A DNA stretch of 61,438 bases, the filler included, from Dugesia japonica (lineage: Eukaryota), in assembly GCA_001938525.1 (NCBI GenBank). It is 6 parts of 6 records of this genome, joined end to end, with 100 filler letters (N's around TTAATTAATTAA, not from the genome) between each part and the next. Parts side by side here need not be neighbours in the genome. Positions count along the whole stretch, not along the records: positions 50,376 to 61,438 come from MQRL01607343.1; 5 more parts are not named here. The stretch is one strand, 5' to 3'. How positions within the stretch are numbered: position 1 is the first letter of the stretch; the number at the start of each line of letters is the position of its first letter. The translations under genes and the position numbers were made by a program. Positions 1-61,438 of the stretch are shown one piece after another. The notes beneath the pieces are model-generated. The model made no database searches and was not told the DNA's origin. It worked only from the letters and a program-made list of their open reading frames with translations.

Positions 1-229
1 CTGATTCACTTGTTCTCTTAATAGATTGATCTCGTTCCTTTGATTGACAAGTTCCATTTCCTTCTTCCGAACGCGATCCATGTGTTATCAACTATGGATC
101 TTATTTACACCCAAAGCTTTCCATGGTGTCCTAAAGGTTTGGCATCTCAGACGCTGGCTGTGCATTGAAACTTCATCCATTTACTTGTAGTGATTTGAGG
201 GCCTCTTGATTAGATATTTTTCGTGACAT
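1..229 (-). pseudogene. Orphan cassette gene 'E', copy 1 (coiled-coil; runs off the window start)
   Basis: Manual translation from ATG 229: MSRKISNQEALKSLQVNG*SFNAQPASEMPNL*DTMESFGCK*DP*LITH, then by frameshift MDRVRKKEMELVNQRNEINLLREQ. Aligns with 8724-9197 (GWSF, MPxLWD, DPW motifs). Preceded by cttag|a ATG. Confidence 0.7.
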
Positions 230-1829
230 TCTAAGTGAGTTTTATGTAAATGTAATCATTATGTTTAAACGAGATTTGTACGATAATATAATCAGATTTA
301 AAACCCCGTGATAGTCCAGAATATGACTATTTTCTTAACCACATACTTCGTTTGAAATTTGCAAACAATGATTTAATCATTAATTTATTTTGAGTTGTTA
401 TTATTTTGGACGAATGAACAATAATTACTATTTATCATTAAGTCATAAAAATAATACTCTGAATGCAAAATGACTGAATACTCATATGTTTCAGTAAAAC
501 TTAAGAGCTACCGAAACTGGATACTTCAGAACTGATTTCAAAATATTTGACCTAGTTGCTAATTATGTCATTAAAGGAGTACTATCCATTCATCATTTTA
601 GATTAACATCACTTCGGTATGAATTATTCGAACATCATTTAATCCAATTTATCAAAGATCTCCTTATCCATTGTCAAAACTTTTATTTGCCAAATTAATT
701 GTGAAGCCGATAGTGTACATCAATTAAAAAAATATCAGTTTAATGTAATTTTACATCAATTGTTATTAACTAACTTATTAACCAATAACTGCAGATTAGA
801 ATTTGGATAAATCAGCATAACATTACAAATATTATTATCAATTAAGTCTAATAAATCATTAATACTCTTTATGCAGTCATTAGCCGAAATATTAAATATT
901 ACTAAACTAACTATAGATCAAATGATAATAATAAAATGAAATAAATAAAACTTAAAGATATTAGCTTATGACTTATATTAAAAAACTACTAGAGTATGTG
1001 ATAATGCTTATAAAAAATATCGTAAGGATGACTGTACAATTAGTCGTGATTATTATTCTCAATTCAAATTTCTAACTAAATAAATATCATAATTAAATAT
1101 CAACTAAGTTCTTAAGTAATTATCCTAAGTTATCATGAATAAAATGGAAATTATTAAGAATTAACTATTCAATAAATAAAATATAAAATCATGATAAAAA
1201 TAAAACCCTCATTGACTAAAACAAATTTGTTTCAAAAATATATTTTATTCATAATTAAAATTGACATTATTTAACTAATATAACAAATTATAATATAAAA
1301 TTATATTATTACTAAATTACTACGAATACCAAAATCAAAACAAAATTCTTTTGAACTAAAACATGAAACGGAGATAATTAAATAAATAGATCAATTATCA
1401 TCATTAATATGAGATCTTTAATGTTAACAGTTCAACTTCTAGCAATCGACATGTTCAACATTTCAGTATTAGGGTTTATAAATACACTTCTATAATGAAT
1501 TTGGTAATTATATTTCGATAATAGCTCTTTACTATATTTCGTGAATTCTTCCTAGATTTTCATGACTAATTACCTATCGTGGTGGGCGGTGGACGATCCT
1601 ACGGGGTCATTATATCATCATAAAAGCATAGTTAAGATTTTACATAATTAAAAATTACTGTATTTTTAGTGTATCGTTCTCCTTTGAAAATTAAACTATT
1701 GATGATCCTTCGAAAATAAGTTTTTCCAGAATTCATCAATGACCCGCAAAAATTTCAATAAAAATTTTATCTGATGATTATTTTAATGTTTTCGCTGGTG
1801 GGGCACATTTGTCCTCATTTTTTCCAATA

Positions 1830-8109: not shown

Positions 8110-8426
8110 TCATCCATCTAATTCAATGACCTCCTTGACTGCTCCTTTTGAGATCTCTTTCTCCGGTTTGGAAACTTGCACTAGCGTCCTTACAGTGAAA
8201 ATCAGTACTCCCTCTCTGTCGGCATATGTCTTGATGATGTCGGCTATTGCCCGACAAGACTGTGAAAAAGCTAAATCTCTTTCCCTCAACTTAGCATTGG
8301 TATCCCGTAACGATGAATTCTTTTGTTGTAGTTCTACGATCATGGATTGCAGTTTCCTTTGCATAGCACACCATGTTTTACGAATGTCCGATAGCTATGT
8401 GTCTGTCAGCTTCTGTGGATTTGACA
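8110..8426 (-). pseudogene. Orphan cassette gene 'C'-like (coiled-coil)
   Basis: ORF 8110..8364 extends upstream in frame through one TAG to tatac|TG at 8426. DIRKTW...ADIIKTYADREGVL resembles DIQLTW...SEIIRFSHD*ENKL at 60548-60906. Confidence 0.55.
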
Positions 8427-8723
8427 GTATAATTATTAAGCAGTTAATATTCAATTTTTTATTTAATTCATAATTAACAATGTTATCTATTTAGGCCTGA
8501 AGCTTGTTAGTTTAATAATATCAAAATCAACCTTAAAATTTGCATATTATAAAAATCAGACTCATTGTTTCTCACAATTTAATCCGGTCATTACTCATAG
8601 ACCTTGATGTTATCGTTTGCATTTAATCACAAGAACGAAATCAGACAGAAAACTATATTATAGTTAAATCAAATTAGATCTCACCGCTGTTTCTTTTTCA
8701 TGTTCGTCGAGTGGCAACAGTAT

Positions 8724-9197
8724 TTATTGTAAGATGACTTCTACTTTAGTTGTTAATCTTTCGGATAACTTGGAATATTCCCCTGTTTCTATCTGTGTCT
8801 CTCGCATTTTCTGGATCAAATGTCTTTGTTTTCCGGCCAGTTCCGTAGTTCGTATTAGCAGAGTGACAATCTCTTTTTCCCGTTCTTGCTGCCATTGGTT
8901 TATCTCGTCCAATCTCTGCTGATAAACCTGCTCCTGGTTATCCACGCGAACCTTTATTTGTTGGAGAGGTTCCACATGCTGCTGACTTTGTCGTTTGTAT
9001 TTTGCTCGTAATTGTTGAATCTCACTTTGCTTTTCTCTCAATTGATCCTGAGTAATCCACCAGGGATCTATGCCAGTACCTTCGATTCCCAGTCAGTCCC
9101 ATAATACAGGCATGTTATTACACTTAGGCGTGCTGAAACTCCATCCATGCCCTGTCATCGATTGCTTGGCCCCTTTTAATGTGATATTCTGTGCCAT
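8724..9197 (-). pseudogene. Orphan cassette gene 'E', copy 2 (N-terminal Trp motifs plus long coiled coil; one internal stop)
   Basis: tctag|ATG at 9197: MAQNITLKGAKQSMTGHGWSFSTPKCNNMPVLWD*LGIEGTGIDPWWITQDQ, in frame with ORF 8724..9041. Homologous to 1-229. Confidence 0.7.
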
Positions 9198-9309
9198 CTA
9201 GATAAAATCATATTTCTTGTTTTAAGATGCATTAAATTCAATACATATATTTATCCAAAATAATAATCATATAATGTCAAAACAGATCATCGAGTTGTTA
9301 AATTAAATT

Positions 9310-20947: not shown

Positions 20948-21015
<68 letters not shown>

Positions 21016-25320: not shown

Positions 25321-25430
25321 AAATCTCAAATAAAACTAATAAAATTAATGAGTTGATGTAAAAGCATATTATATAACAAGAATATCCTTAGATATCACCT
25401 TCCGTTAAATAGCAACAGTTTGTCATTCAA

Positions 25431-26247: not shown

Positions 26248-26364
26248 TAAAGAAATAATAATTTAATAATTTTTATATTAAATTTGTGAATTTTTTGTCC
26301 AAATAATGTTTATATTAAAACATCGATTATTTTTTTTACATAAATTTTTTAAAATAAAACTTAC

Positions 26365-26630: not shown

Positions 26631-26675
26631 CTAAAATTAAAATGAAAACAGTTCAAATTTTAATATCTATTTTAC

Positions 26676-27025
26676 CCCATTCCAAAATGCGGAATTCCAT
26701 CTTTGCTGCCAGCAGAAAGGGAAACTGAACAAGATTCAAACTTCTTAGAAATTTTATCCAAGTTGCAGCAATACATATCCTGACTTATTTTACTAGCAAT
26801 TTGAGATTCCAATGCTAAATTCTTTAGCCTTTGATGAATAGAAAGCATATTTTCCAAATGTTTATGCCATTGCTTACGAGCAATAGATGAAACGTTATTA
26901 CATTTAAAGCAGTTGTCATTATTTTTTTGACCTCCATCAAAACATTGAAAATCAATACATTCTATAAACTTATATCCACTTATAAGATTACAACATACGA
27001 TGAAAAAAAGAAAACATTTATACAT
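26676..27025 (-). CDS. TGF-beta/activin type I receptor, exon 1 (signal peptide and Cys-rich ectodomain)
   Basis: MYKCFLFFIVCCNLISG signal-like start and Cys-rich sequence. Donor GG|gtaaaa. The 45-nt intron 26631-26675 restores the frame with exon 2. Confidence 0.88.
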
Positions 27026-27770: not shown

Positions 27771-28370
27771 TACATAGTATTTATACTTAAAATTTGAGAT
27801 ATTAGAAGAGTAATGGGGTTTTTAATTCAAGACCATCTTACCCATTTTTCCAAATTAAAAATATGTTGATTTGAAATGAGTAAAAAAGATATTGTTCATG
27901 TAAGAGATGAGCTTGAAATGCGAGAACGTGCATTGTATCTTTATTAATAAAGAACAACGTTTTCAACTATAGTTGATCTGGAGATTCGTCGGAGAAGTTA
28001 AATGCCGTATAGGCTTTGCCTGATTGTCAAAAAATGATCTTCCTGAAAAGTTTATTGGTCGTATTGTTGTCAATGACCAACTGGTTTTTATATACGTCTT
28101 CTATTTTCTATATTAGCTGATTTTTTTTGCTGGACATGGCGTAATAAGACTCAATCGCACCTCTTGGCAATTTAGCGTTCTAATAATAAACCTCGAAACC
28201 AATTGTGACAACGACGTTAGAATCGGGTAGCTGGTTAGGAAGCACTTTATTCAAAAATAAATAATATGGAGAGAAAATGAGTTTACAAAAACTCATATTG
28301 ATTAAAGGAAACTCAAATTAACAATTTAAAGGATTTATTCACAAGCATATAGAAGGAAACACATGTGGAC

Positions 28371-28719
28371 TCAGTTTCGTGTTTGAGTTACATAGTATAA
28401 TAGAAGTGGATCTTAAGGTATCTGATGCTGCAGTTTTAGAATATTGTTAACTAATCGGTTTTACCTCTCTTGCGAGGATCAAATAATCTCAGCAAAGGAC
28501 TCGAGTTGAGCTTTCCATACTGGGAGTGTGAAAGCTCAGCTTCCTCTCTAAATTTCTTACAGCGCTTCTTATAAACTTTGCTCTTAGTCTTTTTAGTCGC
28601 CACATTTGCCTTCCAGTTGCGTTTTGCTTAACGATATAGGTCCTACGTCATCTTTTTGTCCTCGTTATTAGAGTGGGTTTTATTATGGGGTGTGACTGAT
28701 TTAGAGCGATAGCCATTCA
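28371..28719 (-). pseudogene. Orphan cassette gene 'C'
   Basis: tatatag|TG, then NGYRSKSVTPHNKTHSNNEDKKMT*DLYR*AKRNWKANVA...YKKRCKKFREEAELSHSQ/WKAQLESFAEII*SSQER*NRLVNNIL...TQT. Colinear with 60548-60906. Confidence 0.8.
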
Positions 28720-28857
28720 CTATATAGAGAAAGACAATGAATCCAAAAATCTTTCTGTCTAGTTTTTTCTTAATTAGTTGTGCCTTATGTTTAGTTGATT
28801 TAGAAAAACAAAGTTATAAGTTTTAAACTATATTAAAGAACAGCGAAGCAAATCTTG

Positions 28858-29094
28858 TTAGCAGTTTACGAAGTTCTCAGTGGATGATGGAGACGGAGAT
28901 GTAGGGAGACGGGTGTCTAACCACTCGCGTGCTCTTAGCAATTCAATGTTAGTATAAACAGCGCTCTGCTTCATCCGCCCTTCACTGATATTCGTGGTTG
29001 ATTGTAGGCGTATTTTGCAGATCTATGAGGATTCCGGCATCTTGTTGGTTGCGGCCATTTAAATCCTCGTAAATTCTCCATTCATAGTTAGACA
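28858..29094 (-). pseudogene. Orphan cassette gene 'B'
   Basis: ctttgtag|TG, then SNYEWRIYEDLNGRNQQDAGILIDLQNTPTI...DEAERCLY*H*. Matches NRDAGILADRSNLPPV...DFGERRSYQNW at 60018. Confidence 0.75.
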
Positions 29095-29249
29095 CTACAA
29101 AGAACATAAGAGTGATTTAAAATAGTTCATTGAAAATTATAATCTATTTTTCTAGGTTAACATAATAGAGACAATACTTTATAGCAACAAGTTGAACTAT
29201 CTATCATTTATTCTACTTAAATTAAATATCGAAACTTAATAACAATAAT

Positions 29250-29537
29250 TTATTTAAATAGTAAAGCTTTCGTTCCGCGGATAAGCTTCGATTTCCGCAG
29301 TGTATCATGGTTTTGGAGATGAAGGAGGGTCCATGAAAAGAACATATCCGGGGTTCCAAAAGCGAGAAAAATCTTTCTCAAATCTATCACTTGCTTTTTG
29401 GACTTTTTCTCTATCGGCAATAGGTTGGAGTAGTCCATCATAATACCTACACAAAAATTCATAGGGTTGGTTATGGATTTGTCATTCCCATGTCACTCGT
29501 TTAAGGAGTATAATCTCCAAGTTGTGTTGTTGAACAT
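29250..29537 (-). pseudogene. Orphan cassette gene 'A'
   Basis: catttttag acceptor at 29548. ATG 29537 MFNNTTWRLYSLNE*HG... is in frame with ORF 29250..29462. Pattern CVGI...P...VIDL...G...WTLLHL resembles CIGV...P...VLNI...G...FTLICL at 59490-59660. Confidence 0.55.
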
Positions 29538-29913
29538 GATGATTAAACTAAAAATGAAGTAAAAATGAATACTACGAATGTTGGTTAGTTTATGCAATAT
29601 TCAAAACAATATAGGGGTTTTACGAAATTTGTGATCGCAGTGAATATAATAAATGTAGTAAAAGTGCTGAAGACAGTGGTGCTGAATTAACGGAAATCAT
29701 GCTTATAATGATAATGACTTGGGTGACCACAATGATTTTATTAATTTGGAGATAATTAAAATTGATAGTATCAACTAACATGAGGGGTAGATAATCATAA
29801 AAACACTGAATTTCCTATTAGTGACCGCATTGCTAATCCTGTAGTATTAATGTCGCTAAGAATGAAAATTAGTAGCAACAGTAATAGTGGTAAAGATAAT
29901 AGTAATAATTACT

Positions 29914-30279: not shown

Positions 30280-31830
30280 CCATTGTCAATCTTTGGAATT
30301 CCAGGGATGAGCTGGGCATAAGCATTGATGACCATTAAGATCCCATTGAATTACTTACAGCCAATGATATGTTCATGTTTGTCTAGAGTGGATTCAGAGG
30401 TGGACTTAAATTAGTTAACAAACACTATGTGAAATCGGATGAAGACACTGAGCTTTTTTAAGTCCATATAAATAACTTTTACGGGTGGGAATTAAGACAG
30501 AAATTGTCGTATATGGATTTTCAATGGATTCATAACGGATAAGAGCCAATATTGGACGATTGTAGAAGACTAGATCTAGAGTTATTTTCATATGGGTATA
30601 CAGTAGAAGTTAAAATGAAAATCTCAGACGAGTTGCATGATTATTTAAGTGATTTGCCTGTTGGAGCTGAACTTTAGAGCCCACCAGGAAGTAAGGTAAA
30701 GAAACTGTTATTTACACACAATACCAAACTGAACTATGTAGTGCATTGGCGATTACTACAACTGAACTAGCAACTTGATGTTAGGATTGATAAAATACAT
30801 AGAGCTGTAAAGTTTATAAGAACACTAGATAGCATATTTATACCAATATTATTCTATTAATTATAAATATATTAAGAAATATAGGATCAAACCTTATAAC
30901 GAAAAATATACTTGGATGATAGTGTTATATAAATTTAGCTGCTAAACTCACGCATTGCTGATTTACTTTGGTAAATAATTCCCCAAAGTATATCAACATA
31001 CACAAGATTATATTTTCAAGAAGTATATAGACGTAAATACTGAGCTAAGATCAAAAAGTACATCTGATCTAGAAAAGAATTATTATAAGCATCTAAACAA
31101 TAGCCTCTACGGAAAAACAGTAGAAAATCTAAAGAAACGGATGAATCTCAGATTATGTAATTCAGCTAGGAAGCTCATTACATACGCTTTGAACCCAAGC
31201 TTTAGAAAAATAGTTAAAATAGACCAGGATTTAATTGCGATATTGGTGAATAAGTATACGGTTTGTGTCAATCGTCCTAGCTACATTGGTCAGACAGTGT
31301 TCGACTTGAGTAAGTTAAGAATGTATTAGCTACAATACATAGAGCTTGTAAAATATCGGAAAGAGGTAAAATGTACCATTAATATTGTGGCGGGAGATAC
31401 TGATAGCTTTTTCCTGGAAATGAAAGACATTAGATTGGAAAGATTACTAGAATTGATGATTCAGGAAGAGTTGTTGTGCACTTCAAATTATAGTGCAGAA
31501 CATCCACTTTATAACAACTTGAACTCAGTGTTAGGCTAAATTTAAAGACGAAAGAAAGGGTAAGAAATACAAGGAATAGGTTTTTATGATACCAAAATGT
31601 TACAGTCTCTTCAGCGAAAAGACTAGCATGACGGCTTAAGGGATAACAGTAAAAGATCCCGACTTAACATACCAGTTGTATCTAGATTGTTACAAAAACA
31701 ATCAACTGGTCTCAGTAAACCAATTTAGAATAAGTACAAGAAACCACCAATTGTACAGCATTGACCATCAATGACGATAATAGAGTATGGATACACGAAA
31801 ACACCGGTATTCCATACTGACATTGTAAAT
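30280..31830 (+). pseudogene. Polinton/Maverick protein-primed family B DNA polymerase (polymerase domain), decayed, with an insertion at ~30820-31015
   Basis: Motifs PGMSW, SGFRGG, INNFYGWELRQKL, GYTVEV...LHDYLSDLP, KIHRAVKF, YKHLNNSLYGKTVEN, PSYIGQTVFDLSKLRMY and GDTDS; many stops and frameshifts. Confidence 0.88.
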
Positions 31831-36787: not shown

Positions 36788-39439
36788 ATGATATTTGGCA
36801 ATTATTTTCTTGAACCGTATCTACGAAATCTAACGTAAACTACAGGCTAACTGCATATTTTAATTCTGCTTACAAAATTTCATCACCAATATTATCACTA
36901 AAGTTATGTTATGAAAAAAACGCCTAATATGATTAAAATTTCGTTTGTTTTCCAATAAAACAATTTTATGTTTCAAAGATTTGGCATTTAAGAATAAAAT
37001 TCAAACGTCGGTTTATGCACATTTTGGTAGCAACGCTCCAATCACCACATTTGACGAGTGGCTACTGTGTTAGACACGGTGAGGTAACAAGTATAACTAT
37101 GGTTTGTGTTACATTATTTCTTAAGGCCCCACCCCCCGTAAAATATATAGTAATATGATTTAATATGAGATAATTCCTAAATTTTATCTGTCGAAGTCCC
37201 CTTGCGAAAAAAACTATTAATTCTTTTTTGGACACAAAAAATTTTGTTGATTTTGGGAGATCATTACTCTTAAAATTGAAAAATCATTTGATTTAAAACA
37301 ATTCTCATTTAAGAAAAATAACAATATTACTGTAAATATTTTATATATAACGGACACTACCTAAAGATGAAGGAAATGTCTATTCAAAAATCAGTTCTGA
37401 AAAAAAAGTTTTTGAATAGTAGAATTTCATTATTATATCTATAAAACTCATTTTTTTGTTTTATAAATCTTGATAAAAATCCAAAAACTAACAATGTGAC
37501 CTTTGTTTTTAAAGGTTTTAAAGATATTCTCATAATTTTCTCTCATATTTCCTATAAAAAAATAAAACAAAACAAACAAAAATTTGTTTTTAACCACATT
37601 AAAGGACTTAGAAACTGTTTTCAATTTATTCTCAATGTCCAACATTCAAATGTTTGTCCGGTTTCATCATTATTTATCAACTCTTTGTCGTTTAATAGTC
37701 CCAGAAGGTACAATCATATAAAAAATACATTTAAAACCATACGAGAGTTATGTTTATCTACATTTACCTGTAAGAACTTATGAATAATGTACGTGGATGG
37801 CATAAAAAACATAACTTAACAAAAATCAAAAAAAAGACAAAAATAAGTTGAATAAAATTCACAGCATATATTGAAAACTAAATTAAACTATTTATTAAAA
37901 CGGAAGGGAATTTTATATTTTAATTTATATTTTGCAACAAAGAGTTACCCCACACACAGAGATAATTCGATTGTTCAGGGGTGCAATTGAAAAATGAATT
38001 TTTAAAGAATGCAAATTTAACAATATGGTGACTTTAAGTCTTCTCTCAGGCTTAGTAAACATCCAGTATGGAGTGCAAATAACTTTTGGCCGCCATTTCA
38101 TTATTTCGCACCATTTTTACTGAGAATCATACAGCGAATGAATCCGCTTATAAGAGCAATGAAATGACATTATTAGCTGGCAGAGGTACATTAAGATAAC
38201 TTTAATTTGAATACTTGAATATATTATGTTTATTTAATAACTTTCTTGTTATTTCTACCTGAAATCCATCATTTAAGGTACTTATTGAAAAATTAAAACT
38301 TATGTTATGTGGGGGACATATTAAACTTTTTAAAGCTTACGTGGGGCATGGTACGAGAAAGGTTAGGAAACACTGAATTTACCCTTAGAACCGGATTTTC
38401 CAAATTAAATTTTAAAAATAGCACTGTATTTATTGCAGTAGCCAGGTAAAGGGAAATATTTTAAAAATATTTTTATTTTTTAACTTTTGTTTCAAATAAT
38501 TTGATGTAATAGTAACATACCCATTTGATGATTTTAAGTGACCCATTTGAGTTCTGCTAAAAGTATTTTGTTTTTTTTATATATTTGTACATACGCCTGA
38601 TTACTTGTTGCATTGCTATGACAAGACCACTTATATTGTTATAAGGAACATAAATTTAACCTCACATTGGTGTTTTGGCACTGTCCTGATCTGTCAACAG
38701 GTGGACATTCGCCAATGTCACTTGGACACATATCGTAAACTCTCGATCTTGATCGCCACACGAGAATAATTTTTGAGCTAATTAAAAATAAGCCAGAAAA
38801 AGAGCTTTTATAAAAATAGCAAAAAGAAGATTTTTTTTATTAATGTGTATTTGTAAATACCCAGTGACTCAAATAGTATTCGTAATAGTCATATTTTTTA
38901 CTTTGATAATCGATTGAATATTTTATCTTTTGAAAAATCAAAAAATTAAAATACTTCAACATGAATATTGCATTTGTTTTTCAAACAAAATAGAAATTAA
39001 ATTAAGCTAAAATTTCCACTGAAAATAATTTTCAATTGTCATTGACATGAATTATAAACAAATCAAAAAACTGTTTTGTCGACTATTAAAATAAAATTTC
39101 AATAGTTTTTTTTTCTCAATTAAGAAAAACAACAATGAGATTATTTTCTTTGTGAAGAAGAACTAATTAATTTAATTGATCTCAAATTTATGTTCCTTCT
39201 GATTTGTCTGCAAAGTCTCAATAGTTTCACATAATTATAACGAAAATAACTGAATTTAATTCTTAATTATTTTCAAGCTATATTATTTGCTTTATTACGG
39301 TAAATTGAAATTAAATTAAATTTCAATTTAGAACAATATTAAGAAATTGAATTTTAAGATTTCTTAACTTCTTTGAAAATTCTATTTTAATATTAAAATG
39401 GCTGAATAATTATTTATAATACAAGGCGTGGTTAAATTT

Positions 39440-48416: not shown

Positions 48417-49075
48417 CTAAATAAAAACCATAAAATACTAATAAAAGTTAGCACATGTTGATATATTCAGTAGTATGGGTTGATTGACGCCATTTTTATG
48501 AAATAAAATTATTTTAATAAATTTTATGAAAATAATAATTTTATGAGCAAAATCGATATTTCACTATGCACTATATTAATTATAATATTTTTAATATCTC
48601 GGTTATTATCAACCAAATATTATTTAATTATTTTTATATAGTTATATATTGTTAAATAATTTGTATTAAATTTTAAGAAAAATTAATAAATAAAATAAAC
48701 TTTTCAATTAATATATTCAAATACTTTAATAATATATTAACTAAAGGTTTTTTAAATCTCATATTTGTAATATTTCCAAATAGAAAAAATTACTTTTATA
48801 TTTTTGGTGATGATGTTCCATGAATATTTTAGTACNAAAAATCGATTGGGACTTAAACCATAGTTCATGATTTCAGAAAGCCTTAAAAAGTTTCAGAAAT
48901 GTTACATTTTGTCTTATTCTATCGAAAGACAAACTGATACAAATTCAATAATATATTTCAATATTGCAGAAATTTTTTATCAATTATCAAAAATAAAATA
49001 TAAACTGGAATATCGATTTAATCTTTCTCATAATTTTGTTTTCAATCCAAATATTATGTATAATTATATTTTTAG

Positions 49076-49256
49076 GATCGGGTAAATCTTACACTATGAT
49101 GGGAACATCTAGCCAACCCGGAATAATTCCACGTTTGTGTAATTCTCTATTTGAAGAAATAGCTCAAAGAGAATCTTCCAATCTTTCCTATAAAACTGAA
49201 GTTTCTTACATGGAAATTTACAATGAAAAAGTTCATGATTTACTGGATGTTCAAGG
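49076..49256 (+). CDS. KIF13: Kinesin-3 (KIF13/Khc-73-like) motor-domain internal exon
   Basis: tttag|GA...GG|gtaa. [20 protein letters not shown]...[18 protein letters not shown]-loop-containing exon. No other exons recognised in this contig. Confidence 0.88.
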
Positions 49257-50275
49257 GTAATTATAAATATATTGATTTTTAACTTTAAAGTTCAATTGAT
49301 TTAACTTATAATAACAATACATAATACATTCAGTCTTTCATCAAGTATGTTGTCAAAGTAAGTTCTAATGTTTGGCTATTTAATCGCTATCCATATAACC
49401 GCTGAATATTTTATATGGTCTAGGTAGCTTTTTTGTTTTGAATTGTTTTATTGATTAAATGAAACTACAATGACGCATAGAGCAGTCATAATTTATATAT
49501 TCAATATACGAATAAACACAATCAATTATTCAGCAATCTATTGATGATAATAATAATAATTATAGATCAACAATATATAAAATTTTACACATACAAAATA
49601 AGAAATAAATTTTTGATTGGTACTCGGTAATGATCTTTACATGAAGTTTTTTGATGCCTTATTATAAAATCACATGAACAGAATTTGTTACATAATGGAT
49701 TTAATGTTCAAACATGCACACTCGATCCAGATTCGTATTGTTTTCGTAATTAGATTTTTTAAATTAAAATATATTACTTTGAAATTACTGTTTTATTTAA
49801 TCATGGTTTTCAATTTTGATTTTGATAACGAGTGATGTTATCATTTTTCACTTGAAATTTTCACAATGAAATAATTATTATTAATGTTATTCGGTTAGTT
49901 GATTTATAATAGATATCTGCATATTTAAGATTTCCTTTCTTTCACTAGTATTATATAGAACTCTTATTAGTGTTTTTTAATTAACAGTTACACTTGTTTG
50001 GAATTAGTCTCAAAACAACAAAACAAAATATTAAAGATTATTCTCAATCTTATTTACTTTTCTATACAACCTAGAACAAAGATAGTGATACATATTCACT
50101 AAATCTGGCATTGACTGGTCTTACTTATTTAAAATATTTTCGATTTGTTAGCTTTGGCTTCGCTTGAGCTTCGAATGCGCAATTTATAATTATGTCCTAT
50201 TTTAAACAATGTAAGAATTTAATTTCTTCTAATTTACATTTAAACAGCGTAGATTTTTTCTAATTAATTCAGTGT

Positions 50276-50375: not shown

Positions 50376-50453
50376 GACGACATCGCGGCTTTTAACTTCA
50401 TTGTCACTACCCCGGACCAATGGCTAGATCCGGAGGCGCTAGATTTGCTTTAA
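50376..50453 (+). CDS. 3' end of an orphan gene 'Z' paralog (cut by the contig start)
   Basis: DDIAAFNFIVTTPDQWLDPEALDLL* versus DDVATFNFTVTDPNQWLDPGALDLL* at the end of 61033-61415. AATAAA follows. Confidence 0.8.
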   Translation, partial: DDIAAFNFIVTTPDQWLDPEALDLL

Positions 50454-51532
50454 TTGTATTAATGTCAAATAAATATTTTCATTAGGATTGTAACGAATTT
50501 AATTTTCTTAAATAATATTAGGGAAGTATATAGAACCCGAACTAAAGGTTTACTGGTGTGTACCCCCATTAAGTGAGAGGTCAACCGCAGTAAACTGAAA
50601 ACCTACCACAGGGACGGTAGGGTAAATTCTTGGAAGGGTTCCCCTGGGGGCTGTTTTTTCCCCGGCCATTTTTCCAATTCAGGTGGGACCCCAACAAATA
50701 TATAATTCCTATAACTAAATTAAGTTGAAAATTCATAATTTGTTTTATACATTTATACTTAAAAATGAAAGCCACCGTGTTACCCCATTTAGTGTGCGCG
50801 CGCACATAAGTAGAAATCATAAAAATTGATAAAAAAAAAGCAAACATTTTGTATTTTTTCCTCTTATTTTGTTCATTCGTCTATAATGCGCTTCATTATA
50901 GAGTCCTCGGTAAGAGCTTCGTTTCTTATTGCTCTCAGGAACTGACACATCCCGACTTGCTACGTATTAATGATTTAAAGATTTTAAGACGCGTCAATAC
51001 TTTTAGACCATTTTGTGTTATTAATTATTACTTTAACGAAATCAATATAATAGTTTAAATTTTAAATTATATTTCACGAAATATTTAAGTACTTTAAACT
51101 AATTATTCTAGTTTAGTTCAATAAACAAAATTCCTTCTCATAAACAAAAACAATATCATGTGATCTATGAAATCAAAACGTAACAGCATAATTTTATAAA
51201 CGGAAATTAATATTTTCAAGTAAATTCATGTTAACCTCAAAGTTTCTGATACTCATTGAATACACCAAGCACAATATTATCACTTGTATTTCAGTAATAG
51301 AAAGTTCAATCACCAAACATTAATGCTTAAGGTATCATTAATCTTCATCTCTTTACCATATATTACTTTATTTCGTTCATTGTCTCATTACACAAAACTT
51401 GAACCCATATTCATCTCTTCATTATCTTAAACATCAGCATCTTTAACCGTAAACTTTTATCATCGTTATCATCAAATCTCTTTTATCATAATCATCTTAT
51501 CAATATTCTACTTATGCAGTGCATAAATTCAT

Positions 51533-51628: not shown

Positions 51629-52593
51629 TAAAATTATTATTTATTTATTTTTTTTATGATAATTTTATAAATAAATGAAAATATTTAATAATAAATGCTG
51701 CTTAAAAGTTCATTTTAATCTTTCTTTTTCTCTCATCAATGTAATTTTATTTTTAATACATGGATACTTTCAACACATTTATACAAATTATAAATAATAA
51801 TAAATATTCCTTGTTTTATTGANNNNNNNNNNNNNNNNNNNNNNNNNNNNNNNNNNNNNNNNNNNNNNNNNNNNNNNNNNNNNNNNNNNNNNNNNNNNNN
51901 NNNNNNNNNNNNNNNNNNNNNNNNNNNNNNNNNNNNNNNNNNNNNNNNNNNNNNNNNNNNNNNNNNNNNNNNNNNNNNNNNNNNNNNNNNNNNNNNNNNN
52001 NNNNNNNNNNNNNNNNNNNNNNNNNNNNNNNNNNNNNNNNNNNNNNNNNNNNNNNNNNNNNNNNNNNNNNNNNNNNNNNTATTTATTTTTTTATTCATTT
52101 TCTTATTACTCTTTAATTTATTTCCTTCTATAATTTTCATATTTTACGAAAGGTTGTTTTAGCATTACAAATAAGTCCGTAGGATAAGTAAGAAAAAAAC
52201 AAAATTTTGACAAAATTTGATTTTATTATTCAACCTAGTTGCCTTTGAGGGTGATACAACGAGTATAGCAATTTTCCCACTTTTCGATACCACTTTTATA
52301 GTACGATTTCTCTTTTTCGTATGTATGTGTGTTGTATTTATTTATAAAAAAATTCATAGTCACGGGATTTTCGGTGTATGTGTGTTGCATCTGAGTTGCA
52401 TACCTATTGCATTTTTTGAAAAAATCAATAAAAATTCTCAGGCATGTGACTTTCAGTGTATGTATTTTGCAGGAGTTGCATCTGACTTCCATTTATTAAT
52501 AAAAATTTCCTAGGCATGTGATTTCTAGTGTGTTTTTTAACTTTCAATGATAAACAATATACTAAATTATTAGTAAATTAAAGAAAAAACAAG

Positions 52594-53213
52594 ATGGAGA
52601 TAAAAAAAATGATGCAGTCTATATAATTGTTGGACCTAGTGGTAGTGGGAAAACTGTGTTTTTAAGTCAATTATTGAAATCAAAGTTATTCAAGTCAAAA
52701 TTTAAAAACATATACTGGCATAGGGGCGCAGATGAGGAGCATGGATTGACTAAATCTGAATTTTGAAATATTAAAATGAAAATCATAAATGGTTTTGATT
52801 CCAATTGGAGCAAAAGATTAAGACCAGGTGATGTTATTGTTGTTCATGATCTGTATCAGGAGGCAAACAAAGAAAACGATTTCAATAATTTTCACAAAGA
52901 TATCGAGACATCGTAATGTGACTGTGATATTTATAACTCAAAATCTATTTCATAAAGGAGGAAGTCATAGAACCCGTAATTTAAACGTGCAATATTTGGT
53001 TCTATTCAAAAATCCTAGAGATCAAACTGTTTTTTGATTTTCTAGCAAGACAAGCATATCCAAAAAACATAAATTTTCTTATTGAATCATTTCAAGATGC
53101 AACAGAAAAACTACATGGATATCTATTTCTTGACTTTACACCAGATGATTGTAGGATATATAACTGATATTATCAACCCTAATGGTATCACAGTATATAA
53201 AAAAAATAGATAA
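52594..53213 (+). pseudogene. A32/FtsK-like packaging ATPase
   Basis: Walker A GPSGSGKT, Walker B-like VIVVHDL, SRHRNVTVIFITQNLF, NVQYLVLFKNPRD and HGYLFLDF; frameshifted. Confidence 0.9.
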
Positions 53214-53507
53214 TGTTTTATAATATTATATAAAATGGCAAAGTTTAAGAAAATTGAAGTTGATTCAGTTACTGATGGTAATATTGTTAAACACCGGAAA
53301 AGGCTGGTTTTGAAGAAAAAGACGAAACAATCTTATAAGAAAAAATTCCATAAGAAACAAGCTCATAAGAAAACGTATGCAAATAAGAAAAACAATTGAA
53401 TAAATTTAAAACACTTGCAAAAAGTATTGAAAAAACTGTAATTGATGAATGGAAAATGGATATCATTATAAACAATTAACTAGTATGTTTTTGTCTTTGA
53501 AATAAAA

Positions 53508-53825
53508 ATGAAATTAGAAAAAAGTATTCCGTTTTTTACTGCTTTGATTAAATCATCAAAATCAATGAGAATGAAAATTTTGGAATCATTTCTAACGCAT
53601 ATTATGGATGATTTACTTGAGATTATTGTAAATATTGTTCGTAGTGATATATATTTGAGCGAAGCTAAAAAGGAAACATTGAAAAAACATATAAAAACCT
53701 TACTATCGCTTGTAAATACAAAAAATAGGAAATTGATGAGGAAAATATTACGAGATAATCAAGGTGGTGGTTTTATAGCAGCATTACTTCCAATTGCGGC
53801 ATTAGGCTTAAGTAATTTCAAATAA
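53508..53825 (+). CDS. Polinton small basic protein with an adenovirus pX-like C-terminus
   Basis: Intact 105-aa ORF ending QGGGFIAALLPIAALG, resembling the GG|F-amphipathic tail of adenoviral pX. Confidence 0.65.
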   Translation: MKLEKSIPFFTALIKSSKSMRMKILESFLTHIMDDLLEIIVNIVRSDIYLSEAKKETLKKHIKTLLSLVNTKNRKLMRKILRDNQGGGFIAALLPIAALGLSNFK

Positions 53826-53910
53826 ACAATAGTCACTTTTTGCCAATATATAAATAAACAATGGGCGGATTGCAATCATTACCTAATTTTGACTTAAAAT
53901 TTACATTGTA

Positions 53911-54955
53911 ATGGGGAAACTAAAGACAATATGGACGGATCCTAAAAACCCAGTAGGTTTTCGAGGCGGAAAAATGTTGCTGAACGCATCTCAAAAAAAG
54001 AAAAAGACAAAAAAGTGGTTATCTGGACAACTAGCGTGCAGCCAAAACAAGCCGATGTTGAAAAGATTTCCAGCAATAGCATATGAAACATGGTATTGAT
54101 GATTTATTGCAAATAGAACTAATGGAGATGATTCCATATTCAAAAATTAATGAAAGATACAAGTATATTTTGACATATATTGATGTATTCTGTAGATTTG
54201 CAAGAGCTTCTTCTGTTAAATCAAAATCTGATAATGATATGGAACCAGCAATCAAGTCAATGTTTAGAAATGGACATCCAGATAATTTACAAAAGAATTT
54301 GGGTAAGGAATTTTACAATTTCAAGGTGAAGCAACTTATAAATCATCTATCCATAAACCATTACAGTGTATTCTCTCAGTATAAAGTTGTACATGTAGAG
54401 ATATTTATCGCACATTGAGAGATGCATTGAAAAAGTACTTTGTACATGTTGATAATAAGACTTGGATAAATGTTTTACCGAAACTTATTCATAGCTATAA
54501 TCATTCTAATCATAAGGGATTAAATGGAGTAAGACCGGTTGATGTAAGTACAAACAATCAATTAAAGTTATGGTTATCGCGAAAACATTCAAAAGCAAAT
54601 AAAAAACCAAAGTATAAAGTNNNNNNNNNNNNNNNNNNNNNNNNNNNNNNNNNNNNNNNNNNNNNNNNNNNNNNNNNNNNNNNNNNNNNNNNNNNNNNNN
54701 NNNAAATAACAAAAATCAACATGAAACAAAATCCGGTCATGTATGTTATTAAAGATTATGAAGATAATATCGTGCAAGAAAAATTCTATGAGCAAGAATT
54801 ACAAGTCATTCCACCACTAGATGAAAAATTCTATGAGCAAGAATTACAAGTCATTCCACCACTAGAGATATATAGAATAGAAACAATAATTAAATCAAAA
54901 GGATCAGGAAAGAATTAACAATACTATGTAAAGTGGCATGGAAACGAAAAATGAA
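53911..54955 (+). pseudogene. Polinton rve-type integrase with C-terminal chromodomain
   Basis: DPKNPVGFRG, YKYILTYIDVF, PDNLQKNLGKEFYN, WINVLPKLIHSYNHSNH, FYEQELQ and YRIETIIK...YYVKWHG; frameshifts and altered catalytic residues. Confidence 0.92.
54778..54867 (+). repeat. 45-bp in-frame tandem duplication in the integrase
   Basis: EKFYEQELQVIPPL(D/E) occurs twice. Confidence 0.95.
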
Positions 54956-55000
54956 GTTGAATATTAGCATCACAAATAGTCAATCAACAAGAAAATTCAG

Positions 55001-55983
55001 ATGAAATCGAGTAATTTCTGTCCAATTATTCATCCCGAGAGTAATGCTAGTAAATTCATTGTTGAGCTACAAAATTTTATTTATATGGATGGTAGTTGGG
55101 AAGTTGCCATGATGGCAACTTCCTATCTATATTCACCATTTCTGGTATATAGCAAGTCGAAAATTGAATACATGACTGCAAAAAATATATTGAATGAAAT
55201 AACTGTAGCAATAAATAACAAGGAAAAAACACAGTATTGATCAAAATAAAAATTCTGAAATATTTGAAAATTATCTCATAAGATTTTATTGTGATTTTCC
55301 ATATGTTGTCATATTTGATTATGCAAATATCGCACACTCATTTGGATTAGGATGTAAATCTAACAAATTAACAAAAAAGTTCGGTCATATCTATACAAAC
55401 TTTACAAATGATGACACTGTACAAAAATTAAAAATTAAAGTGGCTTATACAATGGGGAATTATTATACTTTTCAGTTTAAAGACGATATATACATATCAG
55501 AACTGGAACAATTAAATAAATATTTGACTGAAAATTGTAGTCAAATATTTAAGAAATGTCTTATAAGTGCAGATAAATATTTTGAATTCGAAGTAAAAGA
55601 TGATGTAAAAAAAGTTGTATTTGATAATGTTTTGACAAAAACATTGGGATTAGACAAACAACAATATTCTCCTGCGGATATGAAGGGAGGTGAGTTCAAA
55701 GCTATTACCAAATCGAAAATAATGAAATTACATCAGCAAATGTTCATCTATAGTAGTCTTGTTGAACCTATAACTGTAGGAGATGTTAGTGTATTGAAAG
55801 CAGTATGAATAGAAAAGCTTGAAACTGATGAAGTAGTACAAATAATAGTTGATAATCCAATGTATTTACCCATTGCAACATCATTTATAAACAATATAGA
55901 AATTAATATATGCGATGATAACGGAAAATTAATCAAGTTTCCAAAACATTCAAAAACTCATTTAAATTTTAGAAAACCAAATA
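55001..55983 (+). pseudogene. Polinton minor capsid (penton-like) protein
   Basis: NASKFIVELQNFIYMDGSWEVAM at the N-terminus. MFIYSSLVEPITVGD...PMYLPI...IEINICDDNGKLIKF at the C-terminus. Confidence 0.82.
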
Positions 55984-56430
55984 ATGAATCCTGATATTTT
56001 TTCATTGTATAGTACCAGTCAAGCAGGTGGAGAATTACCTTACTTTTTTGGAAAACAGTATGGATCTGGTTGATTGAGAACAATAGGTAGATTTGCTGTA
56101 CCGATTCTTAAACGTATTGGTTCTTTTGGTATGAAAACAGCTCAGGATGTACTACCTAATGACGGAAAAATATTGCCCACATTGAAATCAAATGCATTAA
56201 CTGAACTTGGAAATGTTATGTCATCATTACCTAGCGGAGTAACCAGTATGATTCGAAAAGTAGCAAACATATTACCGCAAAGTATAATTAATAAAATACC
56301 ATCTAAAATAACTAATATGCTATCAAATCAAGTCACAACACCACAAAATAGTAGAAAATGTAAGAAATCTCATGGATCATGTATAAACAAACGAATAAGA
56401 GGCCATGGAACCATATTTGAAAAACTGAAT
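55984..56430 (+). pseudogene. Polinton PW-like (core/membrane-active) protein
   Basis: MNPDIFSLYSTSQAGGELPYFFGKQYGSG*LRTIGRFAVPILKRIG: QxGG and QxGxG motifs, an amphipathic helix and a basic tail. Confidence 0.7.
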
Positions 56431-56710
56431 TATGTATTTTTCATCAACCATCTCCCAAAGCTGTAATTGAAAGTGGTACTTTCGAAGATGTCTTTCCTAT
56501 GAATTCAATTTTTGAATCACAAAGAGACGTAGAGTTTTTTATAAATGGATCTCAAACAGAATATTTGGATTTGAATGATACTTTATTGTATATTAACGTG
56601 AATGGGGCTGGTAAAGATTTGACTGACACTCATGATGCAGTTTCTAGTAATTATATGCTTTTTAAGGATGTAATTCTTTCGTTTAATAATTTCAAAAATG
56701 AAAGTGGAAA
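56431..56710 (+). pseudogene. Polinton major capsid protein, N-terminal fragment
   Basis: FEDVFP...VEFFINGSQTEYLDLNDTLLYINV...LFKDVILSFN. Similarity stops near 56710. Confidence 0.8.
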
Positions 56711-57410
56711 ACTCCTTCTTTTGCCTGTGTTCTTCATTTTCAGGGGTACCTAATCGCTGGTTTAATTTTAATCTCAAGTGTTTCACCCCAACACTCGTAT
56801 AGAATATATTGAAGGTTATGTAACCTTCATCATACAACGATAATATATCTTTGAAAATCTTCAGTAATCTCAAGCAATTGTTGATTTGTTTTTGTGAATA
56901 ATCTCAATAGCATCTCAACAAATTAATTTATACTGTTTTTTAACCAACAGCAATACATACTATATTCATAATAAAATATTAAATGAACCCTATTTTTATT
57001 ATTTTCCATAATATTTGAATTTTTTAATAAATCATTATTTTCTATACTTATTGGAAAATAATGTTTTTGCTTATCTTAAAATAATAATTGATTTAACTGG
57101 TTTCGATTTTTACTTAAATTTTTCTTTTTTTAAATTTTTAATCTTAATATCACCAAGCCAACAATCTCATAATAGACCAACGTTTTGTAAACTGTTTTGG
57201 TGTCTGAACTTTTAGGGAAAAAAAGTCTATTGAAACATTTTCACAAGCAAAGATCAAATATTATGTTCTTCTATTTTCATAGATTGTTCAATATTTTAGC
57301 TATTTCAGGAACTATTATTGAATTAATTCTGGTCACAAATTTCAAAAAAAAACACAATTCATCTGAAAAAATCTAATTTTCATTGGTTAACATAAGATTT
57401 ATTGAACATA

Positions 57411-57440: not shown

Positions 57441-59489
57441 ATAAAAATGCAACTTTTAATAAACATTTCGATTTAGTTTAAACTAATTGTTTAAATATTT
57501 AGTTACTGATAAACTATTTAAATAATGTAAGTTATTATAATTTATTTTTAATTGATATGTGTATTTGGTGAAACACCCGGTCAAGGAGGAATATAGATCT
57601 TAAATAACAAGTTTCAAAAAAAAGGGGAAAAGAATAATACCATAGTAACATTAAGAACAAGTACCAAAATCGGACCGGGTGGTAAATCAATAATCAAAGA
57701 AACAACATAAGAAAAGTAGATAACTATGAACTTCGATAATCAAACCAACATCCAGCAATCAAAGAAAATTACTAAATTATTAATTAATGGAGCTGGAAAA
57801 TTAATAACCAGAACAATTAATTAAAGAAGATATTAATTAATTTGGAGTTTAAAAAATAATTAAAATTAAGCGAAAATTCATTTATCCCAAATTACTTTGC
57901 CCCAGAAAATCACAGCAGCTCGGACTAAGAAAATTTGAGAAGAATTTAGGGAAGGCCATCAAAATTTTAAAATAAAAAAATCTTACCATCATCCAAGAAG
58001 ATTCTACAGGATTCCGAAGAAAGAACCAATGAGCAACCTAAAAAAATAAATGAAACAAAGGCATTATTGTCATGTGCCATTCCATAAATAGGCACCAATA
58101 GAATGCAAAAAAATCTGAGAGAAACTTTGAAAATTGGCATCAACGCCAATAGAAACGGATTAATTCAAACTAAAAATAACCGGCCAACAAGAACACAGTT
58201 GGGGTGCAACTAAAATCCTATATAAGCCACGGAAATTTTAGTGGATTCATCACAAAAAAAATATCACAACAAAACCAACCTTCAAAGTTAAAAAAAATTT
58301 TATCAACTAATTCTTGTTACGGAGAAGTGAAATCAAAACAAACTATTAATTTTATCTATCGTCAGACGAAACGAAGAAATTTTTTAACCACTTTCAAGTA
58401 TTGAGGGATCTATTTGTTAATTACTGAGTCAATTTTGTAGTACGGAAAGATCGTGAAATTAATCGCAAATTAATTCAAAGGTGGAAGCTGTCAGAATCGG
58501 TAGCGAAATTCATCATCTTCAACCAGGAATTGTCTATATTCACCCAGTTGCAGAATTTATCTTAATTGACTAGTAAGTAAAGTGGTTGTAATTTTTGTTT
58601 TCTTGTATAAATTAGAAATGAAATAAATTTTACAATATTAAATTAATAAATATTTATGTTCAATCCTGTTTAGNAGATATTTAATATGATAATTATAATA
58701 ACTAACCAGAAAGAAAATATCGTTCCCTCAATTAAATATATCAAGTCTGAACCGCATTTTTTATTATTTTTCTTGCAGACGACACACCATAGAAATAATA
58801 ATTCACATAGTCCCCGTGAATAAATTAATACGGGAATTTAGCAGTTGTCAGAGAATCTGGCATAAAAAATTCCGATTTGTGGGAGAATGTCTAATTAATC
58901 ACATATACCGTTTGAACATAGATCACCATCAATTGCACGTTACACATTGAGTTGGTTGTTAGCAATAATCGCAAAGCCAAATTTAGGCAGACCACCATGG
59001 GTATAATCCACCTTGATTAGTGTCACTACATACTGTACTTGGTTTGCGTGTATTTAAGTCAGTGTTAACATGCATTACTCGCAGTGATCAGAGATGAAGA
59101 AATTTTTTTTGTAACCAAAAAACCAAGCTTGGCGGTAATTTAAGCCTGAAAACTTTGCGATAAATAAATCCGAATAAACTATTACGTAGCATTTCTCCTA
59201 CTAATTTTATACATCTGAATTTTATTTAATAAATGAAAGTCTTTATTATCAATGAGGTTAAGTGATCTACTAACAATAATAAGATTATCATAATTATGCA
59301 TTCACTATTTATAAATTTCATGTTTATTTGATAATGATTAATAACTTATTATTATTGATATTACTGGATTCTGATTTACGTCCGTGTAAAAAACATATTA
59401 TCGAGCAGTTATGCACCAACCTGGTAAGGAAAATGTTTCCATCAAAATTCTTGTAACAACGAATCTTGTAAAATTTTTGTAAATTTCCT

Positions 59490-59668
59490 TATGACCACTT
59501 TCCATCGTGGTTATCCGGAAAGACCTGGTTATGTATAGGGGTAATTACTAATGGTCGTTATTATCAACCGTAATCTGATACCAGTCCCGTCTTGAACATT
59601 GATCAATGGATGGCCATGTCTGGTCAATTAACATCGTATCAATTTACGTTAATTTGCCTAAAGTTTAA
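59490..59668 (+). pseudogene. Orphan cassette gene 'A'
   Basis: YDHFPSWLSGKTWLCIGVITNGRYYQP*SDTSPVLNIDQWMAMSGQLTSYQFTLICLKF. Patterned similarity to, and same cassette position as, 29250-29537. Confidence 0.5.
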
Positions 59669-59675
59669 TATTTAG

Positions 59676-59861
59676 ATTATGCCCACGGAACTAGGAAATA
59701 TGTTCAGATTAATCCGGAAACAACGCAAGACCGTCAGATTGAGACAGCTAGTGTCAAGGGGTAAAATAGAGAATCCAGACGACACGGATTTAGCTTGCTT
59801 CGTGGAGATGTTCCCCTCAGTGACTTCAGTGGATATTGATGCGGGAAGTATGCCTTGTTAA
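59676..59861 (+). CDS. Orphan cassette gene 'D' (frame uncertain)
   Basis: tttag|att ATG; 60-aa ORF, GC-richer than its flanks. Confidence 0.45.
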   Translation: MMPTELGNMFRLIRKQRKTVRLRQLVSRGKIENPDDTDLACFVEMFPSVTSVDIDAGSMPC

Positions 59862-60017
59862 GCAAGAGTGCAATCCGTCAATCGCTGTTAATTGTTTAAA
59901 ATAAACTTGCGAGTTAAATGATTATATTTGTTGCTTATTCTACTTCCATTAATTAATTTTAAAAAAAGAAAAATTATATATATCTTTATTTAAACCAAAT
60001 TTCGGTCTTTTTATAGA

Positions 60018-60365
60018 ATGGAATCTATATGGGAACGTATACTCNATCGGAGGACTCGTCGCGTGATTTTCCGGCGACATCATAACTCCTACAATCGTGA
60101 CGCGGGGATCTTGGCCGACAGGTCTAATCTGCCCCCGGTGGAGACCATCCTAGCTCGAATACAAGATTTCGGGGAGCGACGTAGCTATCAAAATTGGACA
60201 GGGCCTGATCGGACCCTTGTTAACACTTTCCAGTACCAACCATAAGCTCCGGCCCCCGCCGTGCAGGCATTCATCAATAATTTACTCTGGGGGGTAAGAG
60301 AACCCTTGGGCAGCAAGGATTCAGAGAATTCGACGCCCGCAACTGACTCCGCAACTACTCATTAG
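60018..60365 (+). pseudogene. Orphan cassette gene 'B'
   Basis: ttatag|a ATG. The DAGIL motif and downstream blocks are shared with 28858-29094. The frame continues past a TAA as APAPAVQAFINN. Confidence 0.75.
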
Positions 60366-60547
60366 AAGTTTAATAGTTTTTTCTTTAAGTCATAATAAAT
60401 AACTTGTTGTCTTCAGATTGTTCTCATCATATTTCTTTTGATTTCGAAATTAACTTTAGGGGCAAGTTGTAAATGTACTATGATAATATCGATCATAGAG
60501 ATGGCTGTTAGCTTTATAATGTTTGATTGATTTTAAAATTCGTTTAG

Positions 60548-60906
60548 TGCATTCATCGCTAAATCGTTCGACGGTCCCTACTAAATCGACGAGGGAATCC
60601 AGTGAGGACATACAGCTTACTTGGGACCTATATCAACTGGCAAAACGTCGATGGGAGGCCAAAATAGCCGCCGCCAACAGTATGGTGTCTCGCTATAGGA
60701 AGAAATGTGTCGCTTTCAAAAAGGAAGCCTAGGCCTCCCACTTACAGGAACGAACATGGAAGAAACAAATTGAATCTTTTTCAGAGATTATCCGGTTCAG
60801 CCATGACTGAGAAAATAAACTGGTTAACGATGTCTTACTTTTCCAGGAGAAAATACTGCTCAGTTCTTTGATGATAGAGAAGGATACCCAAACCCATCGG
60901 ACTTAG
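60548..60906 (+). pseudogene. Orphan cassette gene 'C' (coiled-coil)
   Basis: tttag|TG start. EDIQLTWDLYQLAKRRWEAKIA...ESFSEII...NKLVN...TQT. Two internal stops. Confidence 0.8.
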
Positions 60907-61032
60907 CTCGTTTAAATAATTTTTTTTTTTAAAAATGTATTGTACGATCTTGCTTACGAATTTAATTATTCCTCCTAATTTTACTTAAATCCTGTCGTCA
61001 TGTTACGTATGTACTAATTTAATTTCTTTTAG

Positions 61033-61415
61033 TGCCTCACATCAAGTTTCCCACTAGTCTCCGCAGATGTCACCGTATAATGCGTCGCCGGTTGATCGAG
61101 CGCCATTTAAAACGAAAAACAGATAGAGCTCTCATCAAGCATCTGAATCAACGAGATAGTCTCATAAAGAAACTTGATAACATAGTAAAGAAACAGAGTT
61201 ATTTAGCAGCCCAAACCAAGGCCTTGGAAACTGAAAATAAACAACTGTTGCAAAGGAAAATAGATTTCCTAAAGCAATGCATAGCTGACCTTTCCCGCCA
61301 GATTGGCGATCCAACTTGTGTCCAATGGGACGACAACGACGATGTCGCCACCTTTAATTTTACAGTAACGGATCCAAATCAGTGGTTAGATCCAGGAGCT
61401 TTGGATTTGCTGTAA
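61033..61415 (+). CDS. Orphan cassette gene 'Z' (basic N-terminus, coiled coil, acidic WLDP tail), intact frame
   Basis: tactaat branch-point-like motif plus tttcttttag|TG. 127-codon open frame with AATAAA after the stop. Paralog at 50376. Confidence 0.8.
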
Positions 61416-61438
61416 TTGTTTTATAAAATAAAATGTGC

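Follow-up and report, generated by a model that had tools for sequence, protein, structure and literature searches.

Start codons probably completed by splicing in genes of a dispersed small-gene cassette from Dugesia japonica

Start codons split by a splice and leaders that serve several genes have both been described, in separate systems. In the springer subclade of Drosophila errantiviruses, the start codon of env is split AU/G by a splice (bioRxiv 10.1101/2023.08.03.551782; here and below a slash marks a splice junction, real or putative). The adenovirus major late unit has a non-coding leader, over 20 splice sites and five poly(A) sites (PMC7070027), and the sag gene of MMTV is an LTR gene that is reached via a shared donor (PMC3026287). 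Flatworm operons have been called at a spacing of 300 bases (PMC12582326). Planarians also carry the giant Gypsy-like elements Burro and GYPSM1, for which the excerpts used here describe a giant polyprotein and no gene row of the kind reported below (PMC6431247, PMC11410931). The multi-gene combination of the two features would be new: in the open-access literature no case was found of several unrelated genes of one element that have a shared leader and a split A/TG.

The window, by which we mean the whole stretch of DNA analysed (61,438 nucleotides, filler included, from Dugesia japonica assembly GCA_001938525.1), consists of six unrelated scaffolds with five spacers of 100 bases each between them (N run, TTAATTAATTAA, N run; at 10437, 18876, 29914, 41055 and 50276), so that features on either side of a spacer are not neighbours. 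It is AT-rich, with 16-42% GC per kb, and Pfam matches mark it as animal, with exons that code for a TGF-beta type I receptor-like kinase and for a kinesin. Also present are decayed pieces of Gypsy, Polinton-type and Tc1-like elements (Pfam). On four of the six scaffolds there are decayed pieces of dispersed small-gene cassettes, and their genes are collected with the other features of the window in Table 1. Genes E and F form a similar row (9199-8110, minus strand), with E found again at 232-1 and a fragment of F at 13561-13653 (31 codons, without a 5' end). Every cassette is truncated by the end of a scaffold or of the window, and stops or frameshifts occur in every copy except D1 and A. Cassette 2 lies directly upstream of the TGF-beta type I receptor-like exons, on the same strand.

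Table 1. Cassette genes and other features of the window. Positions count along the whole stretch; a slash marks the putative junction.
Feature	Position	Strand	Description
Cassette 1	59674 to window end	plus	genes A, B, C, D
Gene A	59674..59861	plus	AG at 59674-5, own ATG at 59679, 60 codons, AATAAA 38 bases past stop
Gene B copy 1 (B1)	60015..60365	plus	AG at 60015-6, own ATG at 60018, one internal stop, AATAAA 28 bases past end
Gene C copy 1 (C1)	60546..60906	plus	AG/TG, T at 60548; 118 codons in phase 1; premature stops at codons 61 and 87
Gene D copy 1 (D1)	61012..61415	plus	branch-point-like TACTAAT, T tract, AG/TG, T at 61033; open for 126 codons; AATAAA at 61427
Cassette 2	29549-27960	minus	B paralogue with own ATG, then B, C, D
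Gene B paralogue	29285..29549	minus	own ATG at 29537, 10 bases past AG; decayed; AATAAA 30 bases past end
Gene B copy 2 (B2)	28858..29096	minus	AG/TG, T at 29094; decayed
Gene C copy 2 (C2)	28371..28721	minus	AG/TG, T at 28719; stops and one frameshift
Gene D, second copy with 5' end (D3)	27960..28246	minus	AAG/TG, T at 28244; frameshifts and internal deletion
Gene D, third copy	50376..50453	plus	C-terminal 25 codons, at scaffold start; 76% identical; AATAAA 14 bases past stop
Gene E	8724..9199	minus	AG directly followed by own ATG at 9197; one internal stop; second half coiled-coil-like
Gene F (F3)	8110..8428	minus	AC/TG, T at 8426, no AG; one early stop; AATAAA 32 bases past end
Gene E second copy	1..232	minus	AG, 1 base, own ATG at 229; decayed; cut by window start
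TGF-beta type I receptor-like gene exons	19416-27025	minus	GS motif and kinase by Pfam; cysteine-rich ectodomain by eye
Kinesin motor exon	48997-49257	plus	Pfam
Decayed Polinton-type genes	52566-56750; 30979-31536	plus; plus	integrase and PolB by Pfam; presumably also ATPase and capsid, by motifs only
Decayed Gypsy element	33960-36790	minus	RT/RNase H/integrase, short terminal repeats
Decayed purine-rich ORF	57560-58570	plus	no Pfam match; by eye resembles what we take to be the end of a Penelope-type element
Tc1/mariner-like transposase fragment	11189-11767	minus	DUF4817 helix-turn-helix
Inverted repeat	18686-18866		87 bases, 7-base loop, at scaffold end; possibly an assembly artefact
GC-richer islands	11820-12290; 14940-15110		no match to cassette proteins

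The cassettes share a common layout. At 10 of the 11 gene starts an acceptor-like AG stands 0-10 bases before the start with T-rich sequence upstream, a resemblance at the level of motifs only, and the 18 bases before the AG have a mean of 53% T against 36%. From each stop to the next acceptor the spacers measure 126-297 bases in seven of seven cases, within the spacing of at most 300 bases used for flatworm operons. AATAAA occurs within -5 to +70 of the stop in eight of ten genes as against 25% in comparable sequence (p 4e-4), which is again a motif-level result, with the stop positions of the decayed copies set by eye.

Further acceptor-like AGs and GC-richer stretches are found beside the cassettes (50521-50700 plus, 29855 minus, 58779 plus and 59358-59640 plus). 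These flanking sites read AG/GG, AG/CG and AG/AC, together with a decayed ORF-like stretch before gene A, and a homologue was found for none of them; they are possibly more cassette genes, two of which would have G in the second position. A similar short motif, AGTGTG..GCACATAA, follows gene F (at 7635 on the minus strand) and gene D (at 50791 on the plus strand) at a distance of 340-475 bases, where it comes after a GC-richer stretch and a TATA-like site; its score is not above shuffles. A common downstream promoter region after D2, D3 and F3 was rejected, the similarity being not above shuffles either.

Two classes of start follow the acceptor-like AGs. Five genes (A, B1, the B paralogue and both copies of E) have an ATG of their own, and the initial annotation, which placed it 0-10 bases after the acceptor, proved right in all five, with offsets of 3, 1, 10, 0 and 1, each counted from a T-rich YAG. 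In the other class the reading frame opens on TG, as if the first letter of the start codon were supplied from elsewhere. All five TG starts reported earlier are present (C1, D1, C2 and B2 as AG/TG, F3 as AC/TG), but two of these examples, B2 and F3, are weak. The accompanying statement that such genes have no ATG at their 5' end is correct for C1, C2 and D1 and fails for B2, which is ambiguous because an in-frame ATG lies four codons upstream. F3 has the TG at the site but no AG and no full-length second copy. Upstream in-frame ATGs, which had been named as a sign against splicing, are thus present for B2 and also for D3; none precedes C1 or C2 before the next stop in either copy, and D1 has a stop four codons upstream of the junction.

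AG/TG is not rare alone. The window holds 148 YAGTG sites, TG follows 33 of 565 acceptor-like YAGs, and the frequency of AGTG is 0.0024 per base. TG is found at six of six such starts against 7% xTG among 706 cassette codons (non-Met xTG making up 5%), five of the six having been picked for their TG. At all six TG sites the GC content steps up across the junction, from 12-27% to 40-50%. Judged from sequence comparison, what exceeds chance is the same register in diverged copies and not AG/TG itself: from the AGTG frequency, the joint chance of the C1/C2 and D1/D3 registers is ~2e-5, and by our own arithmetic plain inheritance would keep the four letters in about 1-9% of cases at a flank identity of 24-54%. 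The register comparison covers two copies per gene.

Gene C gives the clearest alignment. C1 and C2 are similar at E 7e-17, and their junction lies, as first described, 19 codons before a conserved ED in both copies (counting the split codon) in a gapless alignment, with AG/TG 14 and 14 bases before residue 5. Identity is 59% over codons 19-66, 28% over codons 1-18 and 32% over the 60 upstream bases. The flanks are thus at background identity, and no homology can be detected over codons 1-18, where 3 identities in register compare with 4 at two other offsets. The first Met in frame comes only at codon 24 in C2 and codon 46 in C1, which puts it inside the conserved block or, as in C1, behind it. 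With these Mets too late and none upstream, translation of gene C has to begin at the junction or ahead of it. At both premature stops of C1, related copies in the public run X1 read differently.

The register of gene D received an out-of-sample confirmation from D3, whose site was absent from the list in the initial annotation. D3 was found by tblastn (E 2e-4) and has an RRCH block before the position of D1's Met. Its AAG/TG falls within one base of the D1 register (28 vs 29 bases to residue 10, with one single-base gap), at an identity between the copies of 24% upstream and 54% downstream. D1 has an in-frame Met at codon 17; D3 is without that Met, yet the RRCH block is kept ahead of it. Within the AT-rich spacer, 17 codons upstream of its junction, D3 does have an ATG in frame, which D1 does not share. 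The predicted fold of D1, modelled without an alignment, is one helix over residues 7-90 (84 residues). Two candidate features near these copies were rejected: 28392-28203, considered as an LTR with a primer site, comprises the last part of C2 and the first part of D3, and the CAG/TG at 50273, considered as the start of the D copy at 50376, is separated from it by a scaffold spacer. Conservation of AG/TG across copies stands in part, with the same register in C1/C2 and one within a single base in D1/D3, but with no AG at F3 and an AAG that is not YAG at D3.

The remaining genes bear mainly on the own-ATG class. P0003, from a public assembly, is a homologue of gene A (52% identical), and P0002, likewise, of B1 (44% identical); each starts at the same Met as its counterpart. 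Both relatives are intact, and each is a single-member cluster on a short contig. They were the only two proteins returned by a HMMER search with one frame covering A, B and D, and shared-word homologue searches returned nothing for D, C or the E alignment. In tblastn within the window, the B paralogue resembles B1 and P0002 only weakly (E 0.13 and 0.39). For B2, a start at the junction fits the length before the conserved Trp of B1 and P0002 better than the upstream ATG does, and family B is found both with its own ATG (B1, P0002) and as AG/TG at about the same position (B2). The E and F genes (229, 9197, 8426) have no homology to A-D, so they may not belong to the A-D element; F as a homologue of D was rejected at E 6.3.

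Public reads add little on splicing and more on the family. Four of 24 listed runs (X1 and the RNA runs X2, X3 and X6) were compared with 58700-61438, that is, with cassette 1. The RNA-read mapping proposed in the initial annotation gave 0 splice joints in the four runs, with RNA reads too few to say either way: 5, 21 and 6 partly fitting reads in X2, X3 and X6, none 99% alike, from 6-25% of each run. The RNA runs probably come from a related species. Among 9 of the 144 loose ends, those listed, no loose end or joint falls at 60548 or 61033. X1 placed 241 contigs on 58700-61438, covering 59620 onward, of which 2 are 99% alike and 157 under 90%. It thus behaves like DNA of a related organism, in which the family would be abundant, the window copies having decayed individually. 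None of the 7 listed X1 indels lies at either junction, and none of the 40 substitutions listed out of 275 changes a junction letter. Two X1 pieces span the junctions, one at 60432-60612 with no gap and one at 61014-61168 with three gaps at 61129-61134.

The same TG position in such far-diverged copies makes a spliced leader the likely source of the missing first letter. That the start codon of C and D is completed by splicing, by any route, we regard as probable; that this is done by one upstream non-coding leader exon ending in A, shared and joined in cis, is the reading we favour on balance. The leader first proposed for these genes is upheld insofar as coding in C and D appears to begin at the junction in phase 1 and to need one upstream base, for which an A-ending non-coding exon would fit better than a coding mini-exon. 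Such an exon explains both the TG-start and the own-ATG classes. A common leader was not found in the regions upstream of the three cassettes, where 0 of 15 region pairs scored above shuffles. One strong A/GTAAGT lies at 58572/3, ~1.1 kb upstream, at the end of a decayed ORF that by eye looks unrelated; it was set aside as the leader donor, being probably the end of another element and a candidate only.

In the favoured model, a single promoter and 5' splice donor would serve all cassette genes, and the choice of acceptor and of poly(A) site would yield one mRNA per gene, in the manner of the adenovirus major late unit. Any offset would be tolerated where a gene has an ATG of its own, while C and D would have lost their 5' UTR and would take the last base of the leader as the A of their ATG. 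C and D would then be translatable only from leader-spliced RNA, and not from read-through RNA or RNA joined to an AUG-ending host spliced leader. The cassette itself would be an accessory-gene block, likely of a mobile element.

Could the leader be joined in trans instead? An operon resolved by trans-splicing, in which an A-ending leader RNA (element-encoded or a host variant not described so far) gives the first base, is the alternative that survives best, and it is nonetheless doubtful. Stop, AATAAA and acceptor within 126-297 bases fit the 300-base criterion for flatworm operons (PMC12582326), a spacing that makes an A-ending trans leader possible, and no cis donor was found. However, the flatworm leader ends in AUG (PMC9851317), with which C1, C2, D1 and B2 are out of frame: such joining would lead to a stop after 4, 0, 15 and 11 codons, respectively, and the conserved frame would be missed. 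Nor is there any Rfam family in the window, where the count of matches is 0.

Improbable, too, is a phase-1 coding mini-exon with its own ATG joined to C and D, in which case the TG would simply complete a codon for Leu, Val or Met. Errantivirus env is spliced to a short peptide or a Gag peptide in three subclades (bioRxiv 10.1101/2023.08.03.551782), and a mini-exon fits the phase of all six TG sites. The own-ATG genes speak against it. A shared mini-exon would need own-ATG offsets of 2, 5 or 8, and those seen are 0, 1, 1, 3 and 10, so that none of the five is in phase 1 (chance 0.13); joined to such an exon, these genes would give ORFs in the wrong frame, 0-28 codons long; the offset even differs between homologues, as in the two E copies (0 vs 1). 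Because these offsets are never in the AG/TG frame, the non-coding leader ending in A is favoured over a coding mini-exon. In addition, a Leu or Val codon does not need a third-position G that is kept in diverged AT-rich copies.

There is a slim chance that trans-splicing takes a more specific form, in which the element makes its own small A-ending leader RNA, trans-spliced onto an accessory-gene operon, and the half-written start codons act as a lock. The element's leader alone would make C and D translatable, and the host AUG-ending leader or read-through would lead into dead-end frames.

Slimmer still is the case for a private promoter and a short A-ending first exon for each gene, placed inside the spacer. 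A/GTA donors do occur 83-168 bases upstream of the B2 and F3 junctions, in the spacers, but the spacers before C1, C2 and D1 contain none (three of the five examined), and spacers of 126-182 bases would have to fit a poly(A) site, a promoter, an exon and an intron. Private exons are unlikely for C1, C2 and D1 and possible for B2 and F3.

It is highly improbable that the RNA is unspliced and translated from an in-frame GTG (CTG at 8426). The junction codon is GTG at five sites and CTG at the sixth, and near-cognate starts have been described (PMC9851317). However, the same T-rich AG stands ahead of five genes with a normal ATG (T fraction 0.53 vs 0.36), for which reason the AG is better read as an acceptor, and the context before the GTG is T-rich.

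Decay or chance, with copies that once read AG-ATG and lost the A or with a motif that is coincidental, is barely credible: all copies but D1 are decayed, with single-base gaps, and AG/TG is common in the window, but two genes would each have had to lose the base alike in both copies, none of the listed X1 indels is at a junction, and the joint chance given above is low. A non-canonical TG acceptor, which would give the same frame with an AUG-ending leader, is very unlikely.

What kind of element would carry such a block? No LTR, target duplication, inverted repeat or enzyme gene is tied to the cassettes, which are cut by scaffold and window ends, and the frames flanking them match no Pfam family. 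The Gypsy RT/integrase at 33960-36790 is on another scaffold and has its own short repeats. The initial annotation had pointed to adenoviruses by way of their kinship with Polintons, a link that finds no support here, since Polinton-type remnants are near one cassette only and the cassette proteins have no viral relative. Cassette 1 lies ~2.8 kb past a Polinton-type remnant, but the PolB fragment sits on a different scaffold, and no remnant shares a scaffold with cassette 2 or 3. The cassette proteins match no Pfam family above the cut-off and give only weak coiled-coil matches below it; C, D and B (94-127 residues) match no envelope family above cut-off, and neither an F-type nor a gB-type envelope protein. 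There was no usable protein-atlas match for D or P0002, no match to the cassette among metagenome contigs, and no viral relative of any cassette protein among viral contigs, where the lone locus, L001, is a phage gene that was judged a chance match.

If the favoured model of a shared leader ending in A is true, the genes of a mobile element in an invertebrate are expressed much as in a virus, with a single leader combined with many acceptors and poly(A) sites over a row of uncharacterised small proteins, and the split start codon ties translation of some of these strictly to splicing. According to the model, A must be the last base of any exon spliced to these AGs. Genes that lack the A would escape ATG-based annotation, and similar cassettes may therefore be widely missed.

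Among known systems, Burro/GYPSM1 resembles the cassette as an abundant AT-rich invertebrate repeat with accessory ORFs (PMC6431247). Its known extras, however, either belong as domains to a polyprotein of 4,900 residues or consist of one upstream ORF (PMC6431247), and these domains do not match the cassette proteins. Unlike the cassette, which is not tied to an LTR, MMTV sag stands alone and has a start of its own, and poly(A) signals behind almost all cassette genes are hard to square with a sense-strand U3. What the cassette shares with the major late unit of adenovirus is ORFs on one strand, acceptors of their own and several poly(A) sites; a leader just before the starts, as in that unit, is what we infer here. 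Its AUG, however, lies within each ORF, after the leader, whereas two of the cassette genes lack the A and the cassette has no viral protein family. With springer env the cassette would share a mobile-element gene whose start codon is in part supplied by an exon upstream. There the arrangement concerns one gene, split AU/G, after gag-pol, whereas here it would concern at least two unrelated small genes, split A/TG, with no env, gag or pol linked to them. The cassette is also like the spliced-leader operons of flatworms in its short spacers, in a poly(A) signal followed by an acceptor, and in what would be a leader able to supply the start (PMC12582326, PMC9851317). The difference lies in what is supplied: the flatworm leader brings a whole AUG, in phase 0 (PMC9851317), whereas C and D need a single A, in phase 1.
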